Positions 301-42,038 of a stretch of DNA of 64,000 nucleotides are shown piece after piece (the stretch's first letter is position 1; each line of letters begins with the position of its first letter). The notes below the pieces were generated by a model that had not been told where the DNA came from, did no database searches, and saw only the letters and a list, made by a program, of their open reading frames with translations. The DNA comes from Candidatus Aenigmatarchaeota archaeon (GTDB taxonomy: Archaea; Aenigmatarchaeota; Aenigmatarchaeia; QMZP01; QMZT01): positions 1,817 to 65,816 of the forward strand of contig JAFGDH010000019.1 in the NCBI GenBank assembly GCA_016932215.1. Direction: 5' to 3'. Position numbers and translations under genes: made by a program.

Positions 301-969
301 ATGATAGGTTTTGGGGACATGATCACTCGTCATCTCGCGAGGGAAAAACGGACGAAAGACGTTGGACGTTATTATCCCTCTGAAATAGGCGGATGCCTGC
401 GAAAGGTCTGGTTCTCTTACAGGTTTCCCAAGGATGTTGATCCTGAAGTGATCAAGATATTCCACCTTGGTAACATGATCCACGACTTCGTGGCGGAAGT
501 GATGAAGAGCGAGAAGAACCCGGAAGTCACACTCGTCGGGGAGGAGGTACCGTTTACCATAGAGGACGGCGATTTCACGATCTCCGGCAGGATCGACGAC
601 ATAGTCATGCTGGAAGGCGAAGATGAGAAGATACTCGTGGAAGTAAAATCCACGAAGATGACCGACATTCTCGACGGACCCAAGGACGAGCACGTCATGC
701 AGCTCCAGCTGTACATGTACGCCATGAAGATATTCCGGGGTATTGTCCTGTACATAGAGAAAAACACGCTCAAAACGAAGGAATTCGAGGTCAAATATGA
801 CCAGAATTCGGTCAACGAGGTGATGAAACGCTTCCGCGCGCTCCACGCCAACCTCAAGGCAGAGACCGTCCCTCCCGCCGAGGCGAAGGAGAACCCGGAC
901 AAGAGATGGATGTGCAAGTACTGCGACTATCTGGAAGAATGCCAGAGAGCCGAGATAGATGGAAATTAG
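301..969 (+). CDS. Cas4-like PD-(D/E)XK nuclease with 4-Cys Fe-S motif (stand-alone)
   Basis: N-terminal Cys (EIGGCLRK). RecB-type motif GRIDDI...LVEVKS. QxxxY (QLQLYMY). C-terminal CX2CX5C (CKYCDYLEEC). Size of 222 aa is typical of Cas4. Confidence 0.8.
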   Translation: MIGFGDMITRHLAREKRTKDVGRYYPSEIGGCLRKVWFSYRFPKDVDPEVIKIFHLGNMIHDFVAEVMKSEKNPEVTLVGEEVPFTIEDGDFTISGRIDDIVMLEGEDEKILVEVKSTKMTDILDGPKDEHVMQLQLYMYAMKIFRGIVLYIEKNTLKTKEFEVKYDQNSVNEVMKRFRALHANLKAETVPPAEAKENPDKRWMCKYCDYLEECQRAEIDGN

Positions 970-1795: not shown

Positions 1796-2569
1796 ATGAC
1801 CGTAAAACTCAATGCTTATCTTTTCGGAGAGCAAGTTCCTGATCTAAAGGAGGCGCTCCGGTACAAGAAATTAAATTACGATAGTCATCTCCTCATCCAT
1901 CCGGAAGGCGCTGATTTCATGTTCGTGAGCAGGAACGTCGGAAGGTACAGCAATTTCCTCATATACAGCATCCCTGAAGGGATGAGTATAAAGGATTTTG
2001 ATAACCTGACGTGGCCGATAATAACCGGCAGGGATATCAATGCATACGGGAAGCATTTCGTTTGCGCTCCCCGTTTCGGGCATAAAAAGTTCCTGAAGAA
2101 TATTCTTAAAAAAGGTGGCGACAAAACATGGTTCATTGTAGGCCCTGGGATGGATCAGCTGACTCCGCATCTGGCTGAAATCAAGGAAAGCAGCGGAAAC
2201 TATGGTCCTGTTCTGATATCAGAACCCCTGAATTACGGTCTTATGGATGATTCTCTCGTCACCCTGCGGGATTACATGGTTTCCAATGAATTCACGGAGC
2301 CTTATCTCATAGACGTCGATCCGGAGGGTACGGTGGACGAGGCCAGGAGAAGGATAAGGATCATAACCGAATCCCCGAAAATCGTCCGGTGGAAAGGCAG
2401 GTTCGGGATAAGCAGGCCTCCGGAAAGGATAAGAGAACATAAAGGCCATGTCTACGCCGTGGTCGATTTCCAGGCCGCGAAAGAGCATTCAATTGACCCC
2501 CGCGGGACCGAGGAGAAGCTTAAGAAGTTCCTCCACCCCGATTACAGCGACAATTTCTTCATCTTTTAG
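1796..2569 (+). CDS. hypothetical protein, tandem paralog B
   Basis: 257 aa. The ATG lies 1 nt after the upstream TGA (ctgatATG). Shares the same conserved blocks as paralog A. Confidence 0.7.
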   Translation: MTVKLNAYLFGEQVPDLKEALRYKKLNYDSHLLIHPEGADFMFVSRNVGRYSNFLIYSIPEGMSIKDFDNLTWPIITGRDINAYGKHFVCAPRFGHKKFLKNILKKGGDKTWFIVGPGMDQLTPHLAEIKESSGNYGPVLISEPLNYGLMDDSLVTLRDYMVSNEFTEPYLIDVDPEGTVDEARRRIRIITESPKIVRWKGRFGISRPPERIREHKGHVYAVVDFQAAKEHSIDPRGTEEKLKKFLHPDYSDNFFIF

Positions 2570-6137: not shown

Positions 6138-6338
6138 ATGGTGAGCTGGCTGAAGAACCTGCGGGTGATGTACCATCAGAGAAGGATACAGGACCTTTCC
6201 CACGTAATAAGGGTGCTGAGGGACATGAAGCACGTGGACAACATAAAGCACATACACGACGAGGACATCCTCTTCTTCACGGGAAAGATGATGGCCCACC
6301 TGGAAAAGATACGGGAGATCCGCGGGACGAAACTATAG
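6138..6338 (+). CDS. hypothetical small protein (66 aa)
   Basis: ORF only. Basic, His-rich helical sequence. Confidence 0.35.
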   Translation: MVSWLKNLRVMYHQRRIQDLSHVIRVLRDMKHVDNIKHIHDEDILFFTGKMMAHLEKIREIRGTKL

Positions 6339-6992: not shown

Positions 6993-7583
6993 TTAAACCC
7001 TTTTTAGCGTTTCAATCAGAGGTTCCATTTCAGGTATGAACAGGTCAGGGGCGTCTTCTATTCTTCCTTTGTACAAGTTTTCCCCTGAAAGAGAAACGGA
7101 CATCTCGTTTTCATTCGTTCCGGCATTAAAACTAAAATTGGTGAGTGACCCGGGCGGACTCCACCTGATGTGCATATTTTCTTCAGGTATCCCGCTGTTT
7201 CTGACAATGTTCATGAACCTTTGTATCGATTTGAAATGTGTTTTTGCCATGGTCAGGTAGTCTGGTGCAATCTCTCTTTCCCCTAGTGACAGCCCTTCTA
7301 CAAAATTAAAGTAAAATTCCGGTGTTATTATACCGCCTATCGGAGCGTACAATATGAGATTTTCCGGGTTCCCCAGTCTGTTCAGTGCCCTGTCCAGAAA
7401 GACCAATGACCTTTTAGTTTTTGAGTACATGAAATGGCCGCCGTAAGCACCGTCTCCGTTTGCATTTTCCGGCGCTATTACCGCCCCTATGCAGGTATGA
7501 ATGGGCGTGAATCTTGCGGTGCTTCCGCTGGGAATGTATACTGCACAATCATCCTCAGTGATTTTGTATTCCGGCATGATCAC
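6993..7583 (-). CDS. hypothetical protein (196 aa)
   Basis: Clean ORF with balanced composition. A TATA-like box lies upstream in the 7584-7676 spacer. Confidence 0.55.
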   Translation of the reverse strand: MIMPEYKITEDDCAVYIPSGSTARFTPIHTCIGAVIAPENANGDGAYGGHFMYSKTKRSLVFLDRALNRLGNPENLILYAPIGGIITPEFYFNFVEGLSLGEREIAPDYLTMAKTHFKSIQRFMNIVRNSGIPEENMHIRWSPPGSLTNFSFNAGTNENEMSVSLSGENLYKGRIEDAPDLFIPEMEPLIETLKRV

Positions 7584-7604
7584 CTCACCCTCAACTTTCT
7601 AAAT

Positions 7605-7624
7605 ATTAACTACTTAATAGTTAA
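7605..7624. promoter_or_regulatory. palindromic operator-like site TTAACTA-CTTAA-TAGTTAA
   Basis: 7-bp perfect inverted arms in the divergent spacer between 6993..7583(-) and 7677..8009(+). The 17-mer ATTAACTACTTAATAGT is identical at 36040-36056. Confidence 0.4.
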
Positions 7625-7676
7625 AATTATCCTTTATAAAGCTTATTTTTATGCTTTTTGAGACAATATAGATAGT

Positions 7677-8009
7677 ATGGTTGACAAATACCTGAATTCC
7701 GGCGAGAGAGTGATCTTCGTGACAAAGAACGAGGTCAGGGTAGGCGAGGACAAGGGCTTCCAGGCTTTCGTGACCAACCAGCGCCTGATCTTCCTCAATC
7801 GCAGAGGTTTCGTGTTCAAGAAGGACAAGATGAAAGACGCCCTTCTCAAGAACGTCAACGGCGTCAATCTGGAGGAGAAGGGGTTCCTCCGGAAACGAAA
7901 AGAAATGGAGATCCGCTCCCATGGCGAGAACTTCAGGCTGTTCGGAGACCATTCCGACCTGACCGGCCTTCACCGGGTCATAAACGAGCGGCTTGCGGCA
8001 ATTGTCTAA
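7677..8009 (+). CDS. PH/GRAM-like small domain protein
   Basis: 110 aa. The pattern GERVIFVTK...FVTNQRLIF is typical of bacterial/archaeal PH-like (bPH) domains. Confidence 0.5.
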   Translation: MVDKYLNSGERVIFVTKNEVRVGEDKGFQAFVTNQRLIFLNRRGFVFKKDKMKDALLKNVNGVNLEEKGFLRKRKEMEIRSHGENFRLFGDHSDLTGLHRVINERLAAIV

Positions 8010-8413
8010 TGTCCCTGAACGCATTTTTCGGAGACATACAGTTCCACGCTGTCCTTTATTCTTCCGCTGTTCCTTTCTTCGACGCTTGCTGTCAAAATTA
8101 CATTCTTTCCCGCGAAGCTTTTCAGGTTAATCTCCTGATCGCACTTCATATAAGTAAGACCTGTTCCGGTGTTGTGCATGTATGAACAGTCCAGAGCGGA
8201 GCCCGTGGCAACGTTCGAACCCCTTTCCGTAATGCTGAAGTCCGCGTTTCTGAGATCGTAACCGGTTGCTGTAACCACGAGATTGGTGCTTGTTCCAGTT
8301 CTTTCCCCGTCTGCGGGTTCCAGTATTTCGATGGTTGGAACGTTGTCCTGTCCGAGTGCGTTCAGGGGCATGATAGCGAGCAAAAGGATAATTAACACGA
8401 AAGCGAATTTCAT
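8006..8413 (-). CDS. secreted protein (135 aa)
   Basis: Strong SD (GGAGGTGGGAGG) before the ATG. Signal peptide MKFAFVLIILLLAIMPLNALG. Confidence 0.65.
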   Translation of the reverse strand: MKFAFVLIILLLAIMPLNALGQDNVPTIEILEPADGERTGTSTNLVVTATGYDLRNADFSITERGSNVATGSALDCSYMHNTGTGLTYMKCDQEINLKSFAGKNVILTASVEERNSGRIKDSVELYVSEKCVQGH

Positions 8414-8541
8414 CCTCCCACCTCCTGCTTGATGGTTGGAGGAAAGTCTTACCCGTGTTTCGGTTTTCTTCGGTTTTTACCGAAAAGAAATCTTCACCTG
8501 GTAATAAACGAACAGCTGCTTGTGAAGTGATAATCATTTCT

Positions 8542-8724
8542 TTACTGAGGCTCCGTTTTCCATGGGATTTCCGTGTAATTGGAGAAAACCCTGCAATAAA
8601 CGGAAGGAACCTCAATCTCGGCGCCTATTAACGTGGGTTTTCCGATGAACATGTAAAACAGCCTGGGTTCATCAGGAAAGTCTCCTATTAAATCCTTTAT
8701 TATTGCGCTTTTTGACATTTTCAT
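8542..8724 (-). CDS. hypothetical small protein (60 aa)
   Basis: ORF only. Confidence 0.3.
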   Translation of the reverse strand: MKMSKSAIIKDLIGDFPDEPRLFYMFIGKPTLIGAEIEVPSVYCRVFSNYTEIPWKTEPQ

Positions 8725-8748
8725 TTCAATACCTTGAATAAATAGAAC

Positions 8749-9780
8749 TCAGCTATTTAACTGCTTCCCGTAGCACCCACCCGAGAAGTACTGGTCGTCC
8801 GTGCAGACCGATCCGTCCGGGAGGACACATACACCGTTAGAGTATTCACCATACCTGTCCATGCAATCGCCTTTCGCCGGCGGGAGCGTTCCGGGGTATA
8901 TCCTGGAATGGCACTCCCTCTCCCTGCAGATGTATTCCGGGTTCAGGTAGTCGCACTGCTCGTCCGTCTGGCAGCATGAGGCGCAGTAGCATTCCCCGAA
9001 TTCGCTGCATTTGGCGTTCGGGTAAAGATGCGTGCACCCCATCCCCCTGCAGTCCACGTTGAACTCGCATCCCCTCGTGAGCTGGTTTATCTTGATCGAT
9101 TCCACTTTACCGTTCTCCACGACCACTATCGCCTCGTACGTGTCCACCACGTCTTTCGTGCTTGAATCGGTCACGAAGCTGTATACGTATTCCCAGCAGA
9201 ACCTGCAATCCAGCTGCCTTACGTTCTGGAAGGTGATGTCCCTCCCGTTCTTCGTCAGGTACGTCTCGCTCTTCCTGATCTCCTTTTCAGCCGTGATCTT
9301 GGACAGTTCTGCTGTGTAGGTCTTGACGAATTCGCCCCCGGAGTATTCGCATCCGAGTATTCCGTACTGCAGGTCGCAGTCCATGGTGCACTCGTTCGTT
9401 TCCTTCGGCTCCTCGCCGCTCCTGTAGCATTCGCAGTCGCACCTCGAAAGCACCGGTTCCCTGAAAGATGTGCAAAGGTCAGCCTCGTCGCAGAATCCCG
9501 GCTGCATTGCCATTTTGCACGCATCGCTTTCCTGTCCCGGAGCGACGAGAGGGCAAGAAATGACGGAATCGTCGATCGCAATCAGCTCGAAACCCTTTCC
9601 GGGGGTCTCGTAAACGACCTTCAGATAATTATCAACGCACGCGTGCACGCTTGACACTTCAGCGTTCCCGCACAGCGGTTCCGCCCTCTGGATGAAATAT
9701 CCTGTGATACATCCGGAGTTGGCTATAATGAAGATCATGCCCAGAAGCACGAATATCCACAGGAATTTATGCGTTGCCAT
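8749..9780 (-). CDS. secreted Cys-rich protein
   Basis: 343 aa. N-terminal signal/anchor (FLWIFVLLGMIFIIANSGC). More than 30 Cys. DUF333-like C-terminal end (CVLPDGSVCTDDQYFSGGC). Confidence 0.7.
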   Translation of the reverse strand: MATHKFLWIFVLLGMIFIIANSGCITGYFIQRAEPLCGNAEVSSVHACVDNYLKVVYETPGKGFELIAIDDSVISCPLVAPGQESDACKMAMQPGFCDEADLCTSFREPVLSRCDCECYRSGEEPKETNECTMDCDLQYGILGCEYSGGEFVKTYTAELSKITAEKEIRKSETYLTKNGRDITFQNVRQLDCRFCWEYVYSFVTDSSTKDVVDTYEAIVVVENGKVESIKINQLTRGCEFNVDCRGMGCTHLYPNAKCSEFGECYCASCCQTDEQCDYLNPEYICRERECHSRIYPGTLPPAKGDCMDRYGEYSNGVCVLPDGSVCTDDQYFSGGCYGKQLNS

Positions 9781-9882: not shown

Positions 9883-10110
9883 ATGAAGGGTATGGGAAGA
9901 GGATGGGTACCAGCCAGAGAAATATATGCTTTTCTTGAACAGGGCAACGCAGTGAAATTAACATATAAGATCCGTCTCTGCCTAAATACTTCAGGGTCAG
10001 GAAATTATACCAGATTCACGATGTAACCGAAGATTGTATTGTTCTCAGAGATGGTAATGGAAAAAAATATCATGTTAATTCTGCTTATCTCCAGGCCAAA
10101 CGACCTTCAT
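9883..10110 (+). pseudogene. possible frameshifted small gene
   Basis: A 47-aa ORF (MKGMGRGWVPAREIYAFLEQGNAVKLTYK..) is followed in the -1 frame by a start-less protein-like run (DPSLPKYFRVRKLYQIHDVTEDCIVLRDGNGKKYHVNSAYLQAKRPS). Confidence 0.25.
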
Positions 10111-35668: not shown

Positions 35669-35863
35669 TCATTCTTCGAACACGAACAGTTCTTCTATCT
35701 TGGCCCCGAGAGCCTTAGCTATGTCATGAGCCAGCCGAAGCGACGGGTTGTACTTACCCTTCTCCAAAAAGACGATGGTCTCCCTCCTGACCCCGACCTT
35801 ACGGGCGAGATCCTCCTGGGTCATCCCGTGCTTCGCCCGGAACTCCTTTATCCTGGTCTTCAC
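35669..35863 (-). CDS. XRE/Cro-C1 family HTH regulator (64 aa)
   Basis: [52 protein letters not shown] start preceded by AGGTGA. Confidence 0.9.
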
Positions 35864-35873
35864 TAATTCACCT

Positions 35874-36006
35874 TCATTCCCCTTTCCTCCCGAACCAGAA
35901 GTACATGATGAAGAAGAACAGCGAGGACCCGAGTATAACCCCGATCGTCATGTAGGTCCCGACAATGCTCCAGTCCCCAGTCCTCTCCGCTATCTCGTTG
36001 ACTTCC
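35874..36006 (-). pseudogene. displaced 3' gene end (radical-SAM-type C-terminus with TM tail), repeat copy A
   Basis: The rc reads ..[44 protein letters not shown]. There is no start except an internal ATG at 35951. It is homologous to the C-terminus of the 40893..42038 product. Confidence 0.5.
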
Positions 36007-36039
36007 CTTTGGCGGAAAATAACCTTTATATACCAATAA

Positions 36040-36056
36040 ATTAACTACTTAATAGT
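36040..36056. promoter_or_regulatory. operator-like motif ATTAACTACTTAATAGT
   Basis: Exact 17-mer match to 7605-7621. Sits between TATA-like boxes of the divergent XRE-side and 36103 genes. Confidence 0.4.
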
Positions 36057-36102
36057 GGTTTATATATAATAGGTCTATAGTGGGGTTTGGGAGTCAGTTG
36101 AA

Positions 36103-36975
36103 ATGAGAAGATATGGTACCGGGGACATGACCGAAGAGGTATACAGGAACGAAATAAGCAGATACGGGAACGTGGGTGAATTTATAAAAAACAGGCCCGA
36201 TCTTGCTCCCGCTTTCGTGAAGTGTTTCGAAGACTGGATTAATTCAGATGTTTCCCTCGTTATAGAAGAGAGGTCAGGGAAAAAGGCGGGTCCGGCTGAG
36301 ATATTTATTCATGTTGGAAACAGGGCTTATACTGACGGGAAAAAAGAAATTTACATACCGGTTTCATATACCTTTCCTTTGATGACGGGGGCTTCCGTCC
36401 ATGAAAGGTTGCATTTCTATCCGGAAGTAAATGAGAGCGCTTTATCGTATCATGAAGAGAAAATAAGGGAATCAAAAACTATTCTTGAAAATGGCGGAAA
36501 GATAGGAAGGGAGTATATTTTGCATTTTTTTAAAACCCTTACAGGAAAGCATTTCGATTCATTAGTTGGTCATATCATATCCGAACTGATAGCTTACACT
36601 GAAACAGGGCCCGTTTTGAATGAGGCAAAAGTTCCGTTCGGGATAGATCCGAAGCCCTATTTTGATATGTGGGAAAAAAATCTGAAAAATGAAAAAAATA
36701 CTTTTGAAAGATATGAGGAAAGGGAACTTTTAATCACACCTGAAAGCTTTTATAATGAACTGATAAAATGGTACCAGTATTATTCTTTTGCTCGTCGCCC
36801 GAACGACGTCATGAAAGGGAATATCATTCCTTTAGTCTCGACACAATTTTCCCATTACGCTAAAATCGTGAACGGTTTTGACGAGATGCCCCCGTCCGAA
36901 TTATGGTCGCTGGAACCCGAGAAATTCGTTGAAGAATACAACAGGAAGGTAAGGAAACTGAAGTCGGGGAAATAG
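36103..36975 (+). CDS. HExxH-motif protein (putative zinc metallopeptidase)
   Basis: 290 aa with GASVHERLHF. No other family features recognised. Confidence 0.6.
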   Translation: MRRYGTGDMTEEVYRNEISRYGNVGEFIKNRPDLAPAFVKCFEDWINSDVSLVIEERSGKKAGPAEIFIHVGNRAYTDGKKEIYIPVSYTFPLMTGASVHERLHFYPEVNESALSYHEEKIRESKTILENGGKIGREYILHFFKTLTGKHFDSLVGHIISELIAYTETGPVLNEAKVPFGIDPKPYFDMWEKNLKNEKNTFERYEERELLITPESFYNELIKWYQYYSFARRPNDVMKGNIIPLVSTQFSHYAKIVNGFDEMPPSELWSLEPEKFVEEYNRKVRKLKSGK

Positions 36976-37000
36976 ATTGTTTTTCCTATCCTTCCCCCGA

Positions 37001-37029
37001 CCTATAACCCCCAGTCCTCTCCGCTATCT
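37001..37029 (-). repeat. gene-end repeat copy B
   Basis: The 21-mer CCCCAGTCCTCTCCGCTATCT (37009-37029) is identical to 35975-35995. The preceding TATAACCCC also matches 35933-35941, implying a ~33-nt deletion relative to copy A. Confidence 0.7.
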
Positions 37030-38051
37030 TCGGATAAAAATTCCCGCCAGTGTCTTTTTTTGATGAAGTCGGACATCTCCTTCCTTCTCTCCGCTTCTTC
37101 CCGGTATTCCTTTATGCGGTCTCTTAAGGTGGGCATTATAAATTCTATCTCGCGCCCATAGTGATTGAACCTGTCAATGTCCGCGAAAGCCAGATTTTCA
37201 GGGTACTCGTTTGCATATCCGCGCATCATGGAAATCAGGTGATTTGCATGCCTGATTTCAGGTGCATATATTATTTTATCTGGCAGCTCCTGCTCTAAAA
37301 GAGAGATTTCCCTTTCTGCATTTTCAATACTCGTCTCGTATTTGCTTATGGTAATGAACATCCTGTTCATCATTACCGGGGTTTTCCACCACATTATGTC
37401 AAGGTATCTCTTCCAGTCGTCTATTTTTGAATCTTCCCCTGATAATCTGGGGCATGTCCTTATGTTGTATCCGGTTATGGGGCTTCCGTTTTCCCACCAG
37501 AACAGATCCGGATGCTCTTTTATCACCACTGAAAACACTTCTTCCATTTCCGGGATGAGTATCTCTTCCTTTGTCTTCAGGTTCAGGCCGGGGAAATCCT
37601 TCCTGTAATCGTAGGAATGGATAAGGACCAGATTTTTATCCGGGTATTGCTCTGTGAACATGGCAAGCTTCATGAGCGCAACAGTACTGATTGATTTGTT
37701 TCTCCATGAACCCTTGACTTCGATGTAATCTCCGGTACTTGGTATGAAAAAGTCAGGGGTATAATTCGTTATTCCCGAATTGGTTATCTCTTTTTTCATG
37801 GTCACCGTTAACGGGAAATACTCTTTCTCGTAAACATAATCGAACCCTGCGACTTTGAGACATCTCGCAATGTTTGCCTCCTGCATGGACCTTACGCTGT
37901 GACCCAGGTCATACCTGTATCCCGCCAGCGGGGTCCCCGTGTTTCCTGACAAAAAAGCACCGTCAACCTGGTTAGGAGCACTGCCTTCAGCCAGCTCAAT
38001 GTCTCCGAAACCGGGATGTCTCATATATCCCTCGATGAAAGGTTTGCTCAT
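37002..38051 (-). CDS. PD-(D/E)xK nuclease-fold protein (TnsA-N/Vsr-like) with orphan C-terminal domain
   Basis: SVRSMQEANIARCL...NYTPDFFIPSTGDYIEVKGSW gives the E...D...ExK catalytic pattern. 349 aa. Confidence 0.65.
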   Translation of the reverse strand: MSKPFIEGYMRHPGFGDIELAEGSAPNQVDGAFLSGNTGTPLAGYRYDLGHSVRSMQEANIARCLKVAGFDYVYEKEYFPLTVTMKKEITNSGITNYTPDFFIPSTGDYIEVKGSWRNKSISTVALMKLAMFTEQYPDKNLVLIHSYDYRKDFPGLNLKTKEEILIPEMEEVFSVVIKEHPDLFWWENGSPITGYNIRTCPRLSGEDSKIDDWKRYLDIMWWKTPVMMNRMFITISKYETSIENAEREISLLEQELPDKIIYAPEIRHANHLISMMRGYANEYPENLAFADIDRFNHYGREIEFIMPTLRDRIKEYREEAERRKEMSDFIKKRHWREFLSEDSGEDWGL

Positions 38052-38105
38052 GTTTTATAAATAGACATAAATTTTTTAACTGGAGAATTCATTCATTCCC
38101 GACAT

Positions 38106-38144
38106 ATAAGCCCCCACCTTCTTAGCTATCTCATTGACCTCTTT
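38106..38144 (-). repeat. gene-end repeat copy C (non-coding relic)
   Basis: The rc reads TAA-KEVNEIAKKVGAYMSGMNEFSS*. 30 of 39 nt are identical to copy D. Confidence 0.7.
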
Positions 38145-38155
38145 TTAGTGTAGAT

Positions 38156-39019
38156 TTACAATAAGAGCTTTTCAATATTTTCCTTAACGACATCGATTTT
38201 TGCGAAATCCTGGATAAAATTATTCCCAACCTGATAGTTAAATGTTATTCTATGACAATTTTTTATTTTCCTGGCTAATTCATGGATCGGGTATGAAAAA
38301 AACAATCTTCCCGCGGGATTTTTTTTCATTTCATTCATCACCGCATCTTTAGATGTATCATAACCAAGCCTGGAAAGAACGGTATCTTCAAGCCTGAGCG
38401 CAATTGCTTCGTCAAAAATACCCATTGTTCCGAGTAATGCTAACATATCCTCAGCAAAATCCCTCCTTTCACGGGTAGTTTTCTTAAATTTCAATTTCAG
38501 GTTTCCCCTCTTATTAACCAGTTTTGCAGGAAAATCATCTCCATTTATAATGTTGCTCAATATTCCCTCTGCGACAACTAATGGGTGATTCTGAAGGGCA
38601 AACCCGATAAAATGATTATATTCATGAATATATGGTGCAATAAAACTGGGGTAATTCGGGTTTCTTGATTTTTCCTTGACAAATCCCTTTTCCGGAAACG
38701 AGAATAACGGATATGATGTTATGGCATTTTGGTAATTTATTCTCCCGTCAGATGAAATTTCAAGGCTTCTGTCATAAGTGGTGGAAGCAGTGAACATGGC
38801 ATCATCAAAACCCCCAAAAAATATGCCGGTACCTATTTTATTTAGTTCCCTGACAGTTTTTTCATCCGTGAAGCTGGACGGCCCAAGTAATCTCTTAGAT
38901 TCGCTATCCAGAAGATGAATATCATCCATTAAAATATCAGAATAGATTTGCATCAATTGATTTCTATATTTTTCCAGTTCTTCTTTTAAGCCCGTGCTGT
39001 TTCCAAAGTATTCTAGCAT
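38156..39019 (-). CDS. HExxH-motif protein (putative zinc metallopeptidase)
   Basis: 287 aa with APYIHEYNHFIGF. Very AT-rich. Confidence 0.6.
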   Translation of the reverse strand: MLEYFGNSTGLKEELEKYRNQLMQIYSDILMDDIHLLDSESKRLLGPSSFTDEKTVRELNKIGTGIFFGGFDDAMFTASTTYDRSLEISSDGRINYQNAITSYPLFSFPEKGFVKEKSRNPNYPSFIAPYIHEYNHFIGFALQNHPLVVAEGILSNIINGDDFPAKLVNKRGNLKLKFKKTTRERRDFAEDMLALLGTMGIFDEAIALRLEDTVLSRLGYDTSKDAVMNEMKKNPAGRLFFSYPIHELARKIKNCHRITFNYQVGNNFIQDFAKIDVVKENIEKLLL

Positions 39020-39038
39020 AATGCATAACCTCTTTAGC

Positions 39039-40826
39039 CTAAACGTCTTCCCAGACGAAGTCCTGCCATCTTCTGTCGATTATCTTTTGAAGGTGGAATT
39101 CCTTGAGCATTTTATAAACGTCATTTCTTGTCAAATAAAATACGCCGGGGTTTTTCTCCATACTATTCAGTTCACTGATTGTTTTCTCATCGCCGAATTT
39201 TTCGATGTATTCCCTCCCTGAAATTAATTTATCCATTTTTCTATGTGTCACTGGATCGAAACCCATTTTCATGGACTGACTTATTTCGTCAGAAAAAAAC
39301 AAGCCACCCTCATAACTCATCCCTATCATATTCAGCCCAATCCCGTACCGATTTTCTATCAGCTCAGCTTCCTCTCTCAGACGCAATTGATTAATCACCT
39401 TATCTATCTTGGACGGGTCTTCTGCCCCGACAATCAGAACTCGGCGCCCGTCGGGAAATATGCGAGGCTCGGTCCCCGGTCTTTGGAAATTCGAGGTATC
39501 TTTTACGACTTTCGTATAAAACTCTCTTGCTTTTGCAAGATACCGGAAAACTCTTTCCGGAATGGCTTTGTGTATCCTGTAATATACTTCCAGAAGGTTG
39601 GCTGAGGTTCCGCTCGAATACCTGAACTGTGAATCCATTCCCCGGTCCAAAAAGCCCTTCCTCACGGCCTCCCTGAATTTCTGCACGTCTTCATTTTCAA
39701 AATTACGCCAGAAACCTATCCCCGTGCCCTTTTCAAGATATTTCATGAAATCGTCAATATCCTCGTCGAAACATCTTAGTATTGTGGGCAATATTCTTGT
39801 TGAAATGGCATGCCTCCAGAACCTGTTGGATGTTACATGACCGGACGGCAATACTATGTTATCGTCTTCTGAAATCCTGTAATCGAAATCCTCAACGAAC
39901 GAACATATCATGCTTTCTAACATTTCATCGTATTCCATGACATCCTTGTAGCTCTTTAGCAGTTCCAGCATGTTTTTCATTTCCCCCGACACGATACCTT
40001 CCCCCAAAAATTCGTTCGTCTTTTTAACGTGTTCCATCTGATGCCTTTTCAGTATCTTTTGTATTTCCGTGACTCTTGCGGTTGCATGGGTTTCGTTTCT
40101 GTCGCTCATGAAATGCTGAAACACTATCGCATATTCCGGGCTCAGTGATATGTGCGGTTCCTCTTTTGGCTGGTTTTCGAAGGTGCGGGTGGTTCCCCTG
40201 CAGTCATTAAGATAACGCATTATTCCGCGCCTGATATTCACATAGAGCTGGTAATTGAAATACATGCTTTTCGGGTCGTCTTCATATTCCCTGAAGTCAT
40301 TGAACTCCGGGTTTATTTCTCTTCCGAGAACATTGAATATTTCCCAGTCCCTGGGAGCGAGGGTTTCTCCTCTCAGCCAGTTTTCAACAGTGCTTACGTG
40401 CCTCTTTTTACCGTTCCTTTCAAGCGCATTAACTACCCATTCGGCCATCATCTCATAGTCTTCTTTAGCGAAATCATCAGTTTCATAGAGCGCCCTAGAA
40501 TCAATATCAGAATCGTCTATCACACCTTTTTCCGATAATCCCTTCAGAAGCAGGGTCCTTAATCTCGGAATGAAATCTCCCCTTGAATTCTGTTCGTGTA
40601 TCATCTCTTTTGAAAAGTGATATCTGGGGCTTTTGTCAAGATGTGGCTCAACATCCTCAAGATCCGTCTTTGCATAAGGCTTCTGGAATAAGACCATATC
40701 CCCGACATTGACATCGGCTACTTTCTTCTTAAGATAACTTGAAGGGGATACCTGAACATACACGTCTCCGGTTGGATCCAGAAATGAATCTCCCATTGTT
40801 GTTGATATCAAATATTTAGCTACCAT
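39039..40826 (-). CDS. large orphan protein (595 aa)
   Basis: Long clean ORF ending 19 nt upstream of the 38156..39019 gene's start. No motif recognised. Confidence 0.7.
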   Translation of the reverse strand: MVAKYLISTTMGDSFLDPTGDVYVQVSPSSYLKKKVADVNVGDMVLFQKPYAKTDLEDVEPHLDKSPRYHFSKEMIHEQNSRGDFIPRLRTLLLKGLSEKGVIDDSDIDSRALYETDDFAKEDYEMMAEWVVNALERNGKKRHVSTVENWLRGETLAPRDWEIFNVLGREINPEFNDFREYEDDPKSMYFNYQLYVNIRRGIMRYLNDCRGTTRTFENQPKEEPHISLSPEYAIVFQHFMSDRNETHATARVTEIQKILKRHQMEHVKKTNEFLGEGIVSGEMKNMLELLKSYKDVMEYDEMLESMICSFVEDFDYRISEDDNIVLPSGHVTSNRFWRHAISTRILPTILRCFDEDIDDFMKYLEKGTGIGFWRNFENEDVQKFREAVRKGFLDRGMDSQFRYSSGTSANLLEVYYRIHKAIPERVFRYLAKAREFYTKVVKDTSNFQRPGTEPRIFPDGRRVLIVGAEDPSKIDKVINQLRLREEAELIENRYGIGLNMIGMSYEGGLFFSDEISQSMKMGFDPVTHRKMDKLISGREYIEKFGDEKTISELNSMEKNPGVFYLTRNDVYKMLKEFHLQKIIDRRWQDFVWEDV

Positions 40827-40892
40827 AATATAGTAAAAACAGTTAATTTTTTATATTAATTTATTAATGTTTCAGGCATATCAACCAAAAGA

Positions 40893-42038
40893 TTACCCAT
40901 CTGCAGACTTGTAAGCTCCCGTCCTCTTGGCTATCTCATTAACTTCCTTAGGATGGGAGAACAATGCACATGGGGTCCCCTCGTTTTCCAGAAGATGTTC
41001 GCTTTCGCGGATTTCCCTGAAGAGCTTGCTGGAGAAGGCTTCCCTGATTGTTGATTTCAGGAGGTTGTGGGTGGCGATGTTGGAGACCGGGCAGGGTGTC
41101 AGATCGCCGGTCGGGGTGACGTGAGCGAAGCCCTTGCCTGCCGAGACGCATCCTCCAAAGTATTCTTCGTCCCCTGGCGAGTGAATGAGGTAGATCTTCT
41201 TGGTTTCCCTGATCCTGAGGACGAAATCCCTGAACTCTTTCCTTTCCTCACTGGTGAGCATGAGCCTGTGATCATTGCCCCTCTGGGTGACCGGGATGTA
41301 TTCGATGAGGGCAGCGATCTTTATTCCCTTCGCTATGAGGGAATCGATGAGCTTTTCGTCCATCCAGTGGCGGAAGTTGTTCTTGGTTATTGTTGCGGAT
41401 ATTCCTGTTGGAATGCCTGCCTTTATTAGGGCCTGGATGGTCTTTTGTGCCTTTTCGTGGACACCATCGCCTCGTCTCTGGTCGGTCATTTCCTTCGTTC
41501 CTTCCATGCTGACCAGTACACACGTGTTTTTGCAGGATTTGAGTGTATTGATCTCTTTTTCCTGGATTGCTGTGCCATTGGTTAGTATTATGAACAGTCG
41601 GTCGGAGAAGTCTTTGCATATATGGGAGAGGTTGTCTGTAAGGAATGGCTCCCCTCCTGCTATTACGAAGCCAAAAACCCCTGCTTCCGATGACTTTTTG
41701 ATTATTTCTTTCCACTTGCTGCGGGATAGTTGTTTTTTCTCCTTTTTGGAGACGGTTCCTGCCGCCGAGGCATAGCAGCCCGCGCAGGCTAGGTTGCACA
41801 TGGAGGTTATGCTAAGAATCAGGAACGGGGGTATCTTGATCCCTTCCTTCTTTAGCCTGTCCCTGGTTTCGCTGGCCTTTTTGCAGGACTTCATCAATCC
41901 GAGGAAGGAACGGAAGTGGCCTGGATGAGCGACTGCCCATTTGAAGAAGACTTTCGTGAGGTTAGGATCGAGAGTGTTAAGGTATTTTCGGAAGGAGATG
42001 ACCCTTTTCAGAAGGCAGAAGTCTGAGATTTTCGCCAT
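40893..42038 (-). CDS. radical SAM protein with C-terminal auxiliary Cys motif
   Basis: CNLACAGCYA (CX3CX2C). GGEPFL. C-terminal GGCVSAGKGF..TPCPVS..CALF (SPASM/twitch-like). Confidence 0.85.
   Translation of the reverse strand: MAKISDFCLLKRVISFRKYLNTLDPNLTKVFFKWAVAHPGHFRSFLGLMKSCKKASETRDRLKKEGIKIPPFLILSITSMCNLACAGCYASAAGTVSKKEKKQLSRSKWKEIIKKSSEAGVFGFVIAGGEPFLTDNLSHICKDFSDRLFIILTNGTAIQEKEINTLKSCKNTCVLVSMEGTKEMTDQRRGDGVHEKAQKTIQALIKAGIPTGISATITKNNFRHWMDEKLIDSLIAKGIKIAALIEYIPVTQRGNDHRLMLTSEERKEFRDFVLRIRETKKIYLIHSPGDEEYFGGCVSAGKGFAHVTPTGDLTPCPVSNIATHNLLKSTIREAFSSKLFREIRESEHLLENEGTPCALFSHPKEVNEIAKRTGAYKSADG
40912..40950 (-). repeat. gene-end repeat copy D (functional 3' end of the radical SAM gene)
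   Basis: Encodes KEVNEIAKRTGAY. It is the reference copy for repeats A-C. Confidence 0.7.

Follow-up and report, generated by a model that had tools for sequence, protein, structure and literature searches.

In a 64-kb stretch of archaeal DNA, termed here the window, the 3ʹ coding end of a radical SAM/SPASM (rSAM) gene is present in four copies. The window is part of an 81.5-kb contig from a metagenome assembly and belongs to a metagenome-assembled genome (MAG) of Candidatus Aenigmarchaeota. One copy terminates the intact rSAM gene, and three relics of coding origin follow downstream, bracketing three small cassettes of foreign composition. No recognizable recombinase is encoded in the window. 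The reading favored here, with confidence that is about even, is serial Campbell-type insertion with replacement of the gene end, the recombination activity not being encoded by the cassettes. A preliminary description of this DNA, made from its letters alone, had arrived at repeated insertion of foreign DNA, each event supplying a replacement gene end; this core inference is supported by the profile, codon and composition results presented below.

Four copies of one gene end

Read along the minus strand, the locus runs from the rSAM gene (42038-40893) through cassette 1, copy C, cassette 2, copy B, cassette 3 and copy A to an XRE-family regulator gene (35863-35669). Its features are listed below, with lengths of proteins in amino acids (aa) and with the repeated gene end divided into a left arm, a core and a right arm.

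40893-42038, minus strand: intact radical SAM/SPASM gene of 381 aa, the target gene (Pfam Radical_SAM 5e-14, Fer4_12, SPASM)
40893-40949, minus strand: copy D, the functional gene end, KEVNEIAKRTGAYKSADG followed by the stop
38145-40892, minus strand: cassette 1, 2.75 kb, GC 0.40, with a 595-aa and a 287-aa gene
39039-40826, minus strand: 595-aa gene of cassette 1
38156-39019, minus strand: 287-aa gene of cassette 1, with the HExxH motif HEYNH
38076-38144, minus strand: copy C, a relic reading KEVNEIAKKVGAYMSGMNEFSS and stop, preceded by H and an in-frame TAA
37002-38051, minus strand: gene of cassette 2, 349 aa, with a PD-(D/E)xK core and a coiled coil
36986-37030, minus strand: copy B, a relic reading (K)IAERTGGYRSGEG and stop in the rSAM frame; core and right arm only
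36009-36985: cassette 3, GC 0.40
36103-36975, plus strand: gene of cassette 3, 290 aa, a near-orphan on the opposite strand
35975-36008, minus strand: copy A, the relic REVNEIAERTG, made up of left arm and core alone; it ends exactly where a 21-mer shared with copy B ends
35874-35974, minus strand: remnant of a 5ʹ-truncated DUF2178 membrane-protein gene, fused in frame to copy A
35669-35863, minus strand: XRE-family helix-turn-helix (HTH) regulator, 64 aa (Pfam HTH_3 7e-17; GC at third codon positions, GC3, 0.74)

That four gene-end copies lie in one orientation on the 3ʹ side of the rSAM gene, all on the strand of that gene, had been claimed before and is confirmed by repeat search and local alignment. 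Alignment scores are 38 for D and C, 35 for D and A, 42 for B and A, 27 for D and B and 28 for C and B, against a shuffle null of about 16 ± 2. Copies A and B share an exact 21-mer (35975-35995 = 37009-37029), to which the repeat search aligns 38111-38131 in copy C at 71% identity and 40916-40936 in copy D at 81%. Copies C and D, in which the left arm, core and right arm are all present, pair over 44 nt (38101-38144 and 40906-40949) with 77% identity and a longest exact run of 11 nt. The repeat is represented by GAGATAGCGGAGAGGACTGGGG, and a gene end of the B/A type has the sequence GAGATAGCGGAGAGGACTGGGGGTTATAGG. AGATAGC is common to all four copies; GAGATAGC is invariant in D, C and A, where B has AAGATAGC. 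The shared stretches are compatible with the identical core of paired att sites, but AGATAGC also codes E-I-A. When a degenerate 24-mer consensus and the 21-mer, the latter with up to three mismatches, were searched across the 64 kb, only these sites matched and shuffled sequences led to an expectation of 0. The repeat is not a dispersed family, in keeping with the earlier statement that it is no generic intergenic repeat.

The coding origin of the copies is evident from comparison with the protein family. Its C-terminus, HPKEV[DN]E[LI]AK.VGAY[RK]T, shows strong conservation across 120 homologues and ranks among the best-conserved parts of the family. A profile hidden Markov model (HMM) of this C-terminus, built from 46 homologues and run on the window and 80 loci translated in all six frames, scored copy D at 35.6 bits, copy C at 31.0 bits (E 4e-7; tblastn E 3e-5), copy A at 11.1 bits and copy B at 7.8 bits. 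In the rSAM frame, copy B reads KIAERTGGYRSGEG and its stop codon occupies a position identical to that in D. This frame is +1 relative to the overlapping open reading frame (ORF) of the cassette 2 nuclease, whose own 3ʹ end forms the left side of copy B and whose stop codon lies inside it. The position first reported for B needs a small correction, in that this copy extends over 36986-37030 and is in a different frame from the nuclease ORF. Copy C begins 11 nt past the stop codon of the 287-aa gene.

Substitutions between the copies point the same way. Differences at third codon positions outnumber others by 7 to 4 between D and C (p=0.039), by 5 to 2 between D and A (p=0.045) and by 9 to 4 between D and B (p=0.009), and the bias is not significant for C/A and C/B; the earlier claim of a mostly synonymous pattern, made for C versus D and A versus D, stands for these pairs. 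Because of the matches to the C-terminal profile, the stop position of B and the third-position bias, the relics are read as diverged alleles of one coding rSAM 3ʹ end, as had been proposed. The tail of the ORF starting in copy A, first read together with that copy, is not rSAM sequence. This tail is instead the DUF2178 remnant, so that copy A is no intact original end, and it matches the C-terminus (last helix) of a DUF2178 protein that stands beside an XRE gene at a related locus, L082 (ending in FVILGLFAGFKLYFGRKGDA and stop). At the junction between copy A and the remnant (window 35963-35985, minus strand) lies a 7-nt tandem repeat, GGACTGG GGACTGG, which may mark how the junction was formed.

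The DNA between the copies

The DNA between the copies is compositionally foreign. Its AT-richness had been noted from a small sample and extends to all three intervals: the GC content of the cassettes is 0.40-0.44 compared with 0.51-0.52 in the flanks, and the GC3 of cassette genes is 0.35-0.55 compared with 0.63-0.85 in the surrounding genes. The XRE gene is the distal border of this island and is host-like in composition; in L082, the XRE gene that neighbors the nuclease homologue is 74% identical to it in nucleotides. An independent Logan assembly contains a contig (L081, 1571 nt) that is 100% identical to the window across copy C, the nuclease gene and copy B.

An NCBI protein assigned to a Candidatus Aenigmarchaeota MAG matches the rSAM protein at 100% identity. 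Among 5.8 billion proteins, 997 homologues were found, the next-best of which is 60% identical, and no closer relative is present in the databases searched. At the locus of this closest homologue (L086), a convergent XRE gene overlaps the rSAM stop codon and is followed by DUF2178 genes, an arrangement that looks like an empty site. Since the XRE-DUF2178 pair comes directly after the rSAM stop in L086, the stretch of about 5 kb between rSAM and XRE would be inserted DNA in the window. The synteny comparison called for in the preliminary description thus yields a candidate empty site, from this one distant homologue. Relative to L086, the XRE-DUF2178 pair in the window is inverted and truncated, and other rSAM homologues have different neighbors. 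An origin of copy A by inversion of an ancestral rSAM/XRE/DUF2178 arrangement was considered and rejected: the inverted right arm that it predicts after XRE is absent, and XRE there abuts the stop codon of a methyltransferase gene.

Elsewhere in the window, two adjacent paralogues of 260 and 257 aa (1012-1794 and 1796-2569, plus strand) have similar C-termini and no family assignment. Just upstream of them, a Cas4-like PD-(D/E)xK nuclease is encoded at 301-969 (plus strand); no CRISPR-Cas genes are annotated nearby.

Proteins encoded by the cassettes

The single gene of cassette 2 codes for a protein of 349 aa in which a PD-(D/E)xK core at the N-terminus (..YTPDFF..GDYIEVKG..) is combined with a C-terminal coiled coil, and the last codons of the gene run into copy B. 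Matches to known nucleases include Pfam Phage_endo_I (3e-5, below the Pfam cut-off), PHROG endonuclease and Holliday-junction-resolvase families (down to 7e-10) and, in a profile search against structures, T7 endonuclease I (weak, E 0.03-0.8). The AlphaFold model is poor, with a predicted local distance difference test (pLDDT) score of 52 overall and below 50 over the catalytic domain, and it is unusable for the catalytic half of the protein. The matches, consistent though weak, hint at a PD-(D/E)xK nuclease resembling T7 endonuclease I. The family is very rare: among 5.8 billion proteins it forms 3 clusters, one of which is the 349-aa protein itself, and no relatives were found in viral contigs. 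The sequence tccagttaaaaa(a)ttt just upstream of the nuclease gene is kept between the window (38071-38084, minus strand), where the stop codon of copy C's frame falls within its overlap, and L082 (~9965-9980). It is probably a 5ʹ border or promoter of the nuclease unit.

The genes of cassette 1 have an AT-rich upstream region of their own. The structural model of the 595-aa protein is good (pLDDT 84.5) and has an intein-like (Hint) fold; an alignment with seven homologues reveals no invariant intein splicing residues. In two genomes, a homologue lies between rpl4 and rpl23 with a different partner gene in each, and further homologues adjoin DNA ligase or GatD. No gene-end duplication was found at other sites of this family (rpl4-rpl23, HD gene), and the model had no significant match in BFVD. 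The PD-(D/E)xK nuclease and the Hint-fold protein together suggest the biology of selfish elements.

The remaining two cassette proteins, the 287-aa protein of cassette 1 and the 290-aa protein of cassette 3, each contain an HExxH motif (HERLH in the latter). Similarity between the two is undetectable, and they may represent unrelated metalloproteases. Neither matches a family in Pfam, PHROG, PADLOC or NCBIfam. Only 2 remote homologues of the 290-aa protein occur among 1.84 billion representative proteins. The partner genes of the 595-aa homologues showed no homology to the 287-aa protein.

Gene-end arrays at other loci

Gene-end duplications in same-strand orientation are also present at both other loci that contain a homologue of the cassette 2 nuclease, L085 and L082. 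In L085, a direct repeat of 148 nt (1-148 and 2805-2952; 99% identical; the contig begins within the first copy) brackets 2.8 kb. The repeat is the 3ʹ part of a gene for a 63-aa membrane protein and ends about 10 nt past the stop codon. The bracketed DNA holds four small genes and, as the last gene, the nuclease homologue. An intergenic motif of ~20-40 nt, (G)CTTAAAAAGGATTTTT.., precedes most genes in L085 (122-169, 450-497, 821-860, 1560-1607, 2721-2768, 2926-2973, 3198-3245 and 5351-5398) and is probably a strongly conserved archaeal promoter.

L082, a metagenomic contig that came to light solely through its nuclease homologue, contains two sets of relics. At 7078-8960, an arrangement that is also present in L083 and L084 (three samples), the last part of a gene for a small membrane protein (FAAVLMVVIDLCRGGLED and stop) recurs twice downstream, as SRGGLED and stop and as FAAVLMAVIDLCRGGLED and stop. 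Two modules, a ParE-like one and a Fic/Doc-RHH toxin-antitoxin one, 807 and 689 nt long, are bracketed in this way, and each relic begins right after the stop codon of the preceding gene. The longer relic matches the gene end at 42 of 57 nt, with 12 synonymous codon changes and 1 non-synonymous change (p=3e-4). Additionally, the end of an alcohol dehydrogenase (ADH) gene (LVMGGKESVKVIIEPHK and stop; gene at 286-1314) recurs 4.9 kb downstream at 6211-6261 as LVLQAKNSVKVII, a stop, PHK and a final stop. This third relic in the contig follows a 4.8-kb gene for a 1590-aa BNR-repeat protein, and its final stop position is the same as that of the gene. Some 1 kb past the last relic comes the nuclease gene, beside an XRE-DUF2178 pair.

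This co-occurrence at n=3 independent loci is suggestive of a link between the nuclease and gene-end arrays. Scans for relics across all loci (peptide searches and tblastn) returned shadow ORFs and low-complexity matches and were too noisy for an enrichment statistic. Relic-like copies of the last 17-25 codons also occur downstream of a gene in contigs from an Asgard archaeon (L003:19010-19084, minus strand), a member of the Bathyarchaeia (L010:1982-2035, minus strand) and a member of the Clostridia (L078:7025-7075, minus strand); no integrase was found by Pfam among the genes between gene and relic in L010.

Comparison with known systems

Insertion of the cryptic prophage e14 or of phage 21 at icd offers a close integrase-made parallel, in that the insert supplies a new 3ʹ end and the old end remains as a direct-repeat relic at the far side. 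In E. coli K-12, analyzed as a control, e14 starts 165 nt before the icd stop codon, with the displaced end, the icdC pseudogene, on its far side. These ends are identical at 153 of 165 nt (92.7%), with 11 third-position differences against 1 other, so copies of the rSAM end resemble icd/icdC in differing mostly at synonymous sites. Since a product of an integrase displays this pattern, the pattern proves coding ancestry of the relics and not a new mechanism. The two cases also differ. Whereas e14 is 15 kb long and carries intE and xisE, the units here are 1.0-2.8 kb and three in tandem, and no recombinase match was obtained among the ORFs scanned over 64 kb; moreover, the repeats are shorter and more diverged (30-45 nt, 70-83% identical), and the host is a DPANN archaeon. 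What is unusual here is that the units are small and tidy (1.0-2.8 kb, and 0.7-0.8 kb in L082) and stand three in a row, that no recombinase is recognizable in the window or the two related loci, and that each locus has a different target gene.

Elements that are flanked by att sites but lack recombination genes, the cis-mobilizable elements (CIMEs), are documented to accrete in tandem (PMC5704250). By the definition given there, CIMEs share with this locus att-flanked units in tandem that lack recombination or transfer genes, as well as hybrid internal att sites (PMC5704250). However, the streptococcal CIMEs (ICESt1 family at fda) are decayed integrative and conjugative elements (ICEs) or integrative and mobilizable elements (IMEs), and normally an element with the cognate integrase accompanies them, at the site or close to it; no such element is seen in the present case. 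The units of the rSAM locus resemble purpose-built cassettes of one or two genes rather than such debris.

A second parallel is found in fungal mitochondria. In mobile ORFs (mORFs), a gene core is followed by an inserted C-terminus, an endonuclease ORF and the native C-terminus, the named examples being Allomyces atp6 and Glomus atp6, atp9, cox2 and nad3; inserted and native C-termini are 64-81% identical in nucleotides and ~100% identical in protein, and the endonuclease is reported to have been shown biochemically to cause the mobility (PMC3630166). Copy C (38076-38144), the nuclease gene (37002-38051) and copy B (36986-37030) stand in the matching order. Enzymes of mORFs are of the LAGLIDADG or GIY-YIG type and often in frame with the host gene, and PD-(D/E)xK homing endonucleases also exist (I-Ssp6803I). 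In contrast to these organellar elements, the candidate enzyme here is of the PD-(D/E)xK, T7 endonuclease I-like type with its own upstream region, and two of the three cassettes are without a recognizable nuclease.

Integrons, which have been reported in Archaea (PMC9668308), likewise consist of arrays of small, mostly one-gene foreign cassettes with short sites between them. Unlike in integrons, the recombination site here is the coding end of a host gene, the cassettes have their own upstream regions, and one gene is inverted. The toxin-antitoxin cassettes of the L082 array are a further likeness, as toxin-antitoxin pairs are common integron cargo. An integron was rejected: there is no IntI in the island or among the ~56 ORFs of the window, and no attC-like hairpin at the copies. 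Folding of 81-nt windows on both strands of the four copies gave z scores of -0.96 to +1.40 relative to shuffles and no shared hairpin. An RNA element or tRNA target was dismissed as well, with no tRNA in the window and no Rfam family matched there or at the copies. For a transposon or casposon, neither inverted repeats at the cassette borders nor a transposase or Cas1 was found, and the repeats are diverged, not identical duplications.

Proposed mechanism and rival explanations

In the serial insertion model, three small foreign cassettes would have entered one after another by reciprocal (Campbell-type) recombination within the final ~45 nt of the rSAM gene. The DNA that arrived each time, probably as a small circle, would have brought its own allelic copy of the gene end, and crossover would have taken place in the short shared core (AGATAGC in all four copies, the 21-mer for A and B). 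After each event, the rSAM ORF would remain intact with a new or hybrid end, and the older end would be displaced downstream as a non-coding relic; the part of copy D that lies 3ʹ of the core would have come with cassette 1. We infer circular intermediates, a crossover within the core, the order of events and a catalyst acting in trans from the arrangement of the copies; since the cassettes are integrase-less, the recombination activity would be supplied in trans or by the host. In formal terms, this would be e14-type insertion with an element-borne gene end, repeated as tandem accretion by units of one or two genes. The model accounts well for an intact gene trailed by a series of allelic ends, and the two arrays of like design in L082, the icd/e14 case and the documented accretion of CIMEs also speak for it. 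The geometry of A and B fits Campbell-type insertion at the 21-mer. The left arm of A, the 21-mer and the right arm of B add up to a complete gene end (REVNEIAERTGGYRSGEG and stop), and recombination between A and B would release a circle of 1,034 bp carrying cassette 3 and this whole gene end. Excision of cassette 3 at the 21-mer would yield the chromosomal junction ...TTTTTATCCGAAGATAGCGGAGAGGACTGGGGACTGGAGCATTGTC... and the circle junction ...AGGGAAGTCAACGAGATAGCGGAGAGGACTGGGGGTTATAGGTCGGGGGAAGGATAG....

Several results weigh against serial insertion of this kind. None of the ~56 ORFs in the window matches an integrase or transposase family in Pfam, as the preliminary description had stated, and no recombinase family is matched by the island ORFs in Pfam, PHROGs, PADLOC or NCBIfam. 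Nor does an integrase appear in the Pfam annotations of L082 and L085, the related loci, which brings the DNA covered to ~84 kb including the window; this search took in 64 kb of the 81.5-kb contig, the remaining ~17.5 kb and the rest of the genome lying outside it. A second copy of the C-terminus is absent from all 36 rSAM orthologue loci (80 fetched, from representative genomes), a result that also excludes the rSAM gene end as a general hotspot. The closest homologue for comparison is only 60% identical, and two metagenome site scans gave 0 matches; a site scan of viral sequences gave 4, which is chance level. Furthermore, the copies are 70-83% identical with a common core of 7-11 nt, short for homologous recombination, and a recombinase site is only putative. 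The loss of the left arm in B and of the right arm in A would require extra deletions or rearrangements. The preliminary description had left the mechanism open, and rightly so.

The main rival, which we regard as somewhat unlikely, is a homing-type displacement of C-termini driven by the cassette 2 nuclease. The nuclease would cut a cassette-free gene end, and repair would copy in a recoded, cut-resistant end together with the nuclease gene, leaving the native end downstream; neighboring cassettes would hitch-hike or use selfish genes of their own, such as that of the Hint-fold protein. The order of copy C, nuclease and copy B and the divergence of the ends match mORF hybrids (PMC3630166). 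Moreover, a family limited to 3 clusters in 5.8 billion proteins is accompanied by same-strand gene-end duplications at both other loci where it occurs, with three relics within the 4 kb upstream of the nuclease in L082, and no integrase was found at any of the three. Homologues of the 595-aa protein lie inside conserved operons (rpl4/rpl23), as selfish genes often do, yet these sites lack gene-end duplications. The nuclease assignment itself comes from weak matches (below the cut-off in Pfam, E 0.03-0.8 against PDB structures, a poor AlphaFold model), and enzymes like T7 endonuclease I select their substrates by structure, not by sequence. A nuclease gene is missing from cassette 3 and from the toxin-antitoxin cassettes of L082. 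The enzyme may simply be cargo, for instance a defense gene of the sort that gathers in variable regions. The sample is three loci, and icd/e14 acquires the synonymous pattern without homing.

Alternatively, the three units could be decayed complete integrative elements, proviruses or plasmids, that lost the integrase and most other genes by deletion. Archaeal and bacterial elements do leave att-flanked remnants, and tandem decayed arrays are common (PMC5704250). Deletions evidently occurred at this locus too, given that A and B each lack one arm and the DUF2178 gene is truncated. Decay is nevertheless improbable, because all three units are compact, with intact ORFs and an AT-rich upstream region each, and because the relics abut ORFs: copy C starts just past a stop codon, the nuclease stop is within B, and the L082 toxin-antitoxin units of 689-807 nt likewise abut relics. 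Such neat trimming, five times over, is not expected from deletion, and no fragment of an integrase is detectable. That the copies reflect a generic dispersed repeat, similarity by chance, native DNA duplicated locally or an artifact of assembly is a notion to which we assign next to no probability. The weak scores of A and B at the protein level (11.1 and 7.8 bits) and the metagenomic origin of the contig would allow it. Against it stand the expectation of 0 chance matches with no further copies in 64 kb, the coding ancestry indicated by the 31 bits of copy C, the third-position bias and the stop position, the foreign composition between the copies, and the exact agreement of the Logan assembly across the junctions from C through the nuclease to B. 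With neither a hairpin nor an Rfam match, the copies are not attC sites or RNA elements. This evidence already refutes such explanations.

Significance

Insertion at a gene 3ʹ end with supply of a replacement end is classic integrase biology and is already known. Here, three tiny cassettes in series, with no recombinase seen, have this arrangement in a member of the DPANN archaea, about whose mobile elements little is known. Both of the other loci that carry the rare cassette nuclease, the only two there are, repeat the design with different target genes. Recurrence with this nuclease family in DPANN-like contigs possibly reflects a cassette system that has not been described. If a distant integrase exists, the locus would be an ordinary, neat tandem accretion at a protein-gene att site.

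A bolder interpretation, to be regarded as unlikely, is that DPANN archaea possess an undescribed, integrase-independent cassette system in which a novel PD-(D/E)xK family drives homing and displaced gene ends serve as portable recombination linkers. It is similarly doubtful that the cassettes of such a system (toxin-antitoxin, nuclease and Hint-fold units) spread from genome to genome by breaking the 3ʹ end of a host gene, whichever it may be, and putting another in its place. If true, this would be a prokaryotic counterpart of the C-terminal swapping by fungal mitochondrial mORFs, one that builds integron-like arrays. Should either a trans-acting or a nuclease mechanism prove true, gene-end relics with synonymous divergence would offer a simple signature by which to find such hotspots, and small-genome archaea would have a new route to gain and shuffle accessory genes.

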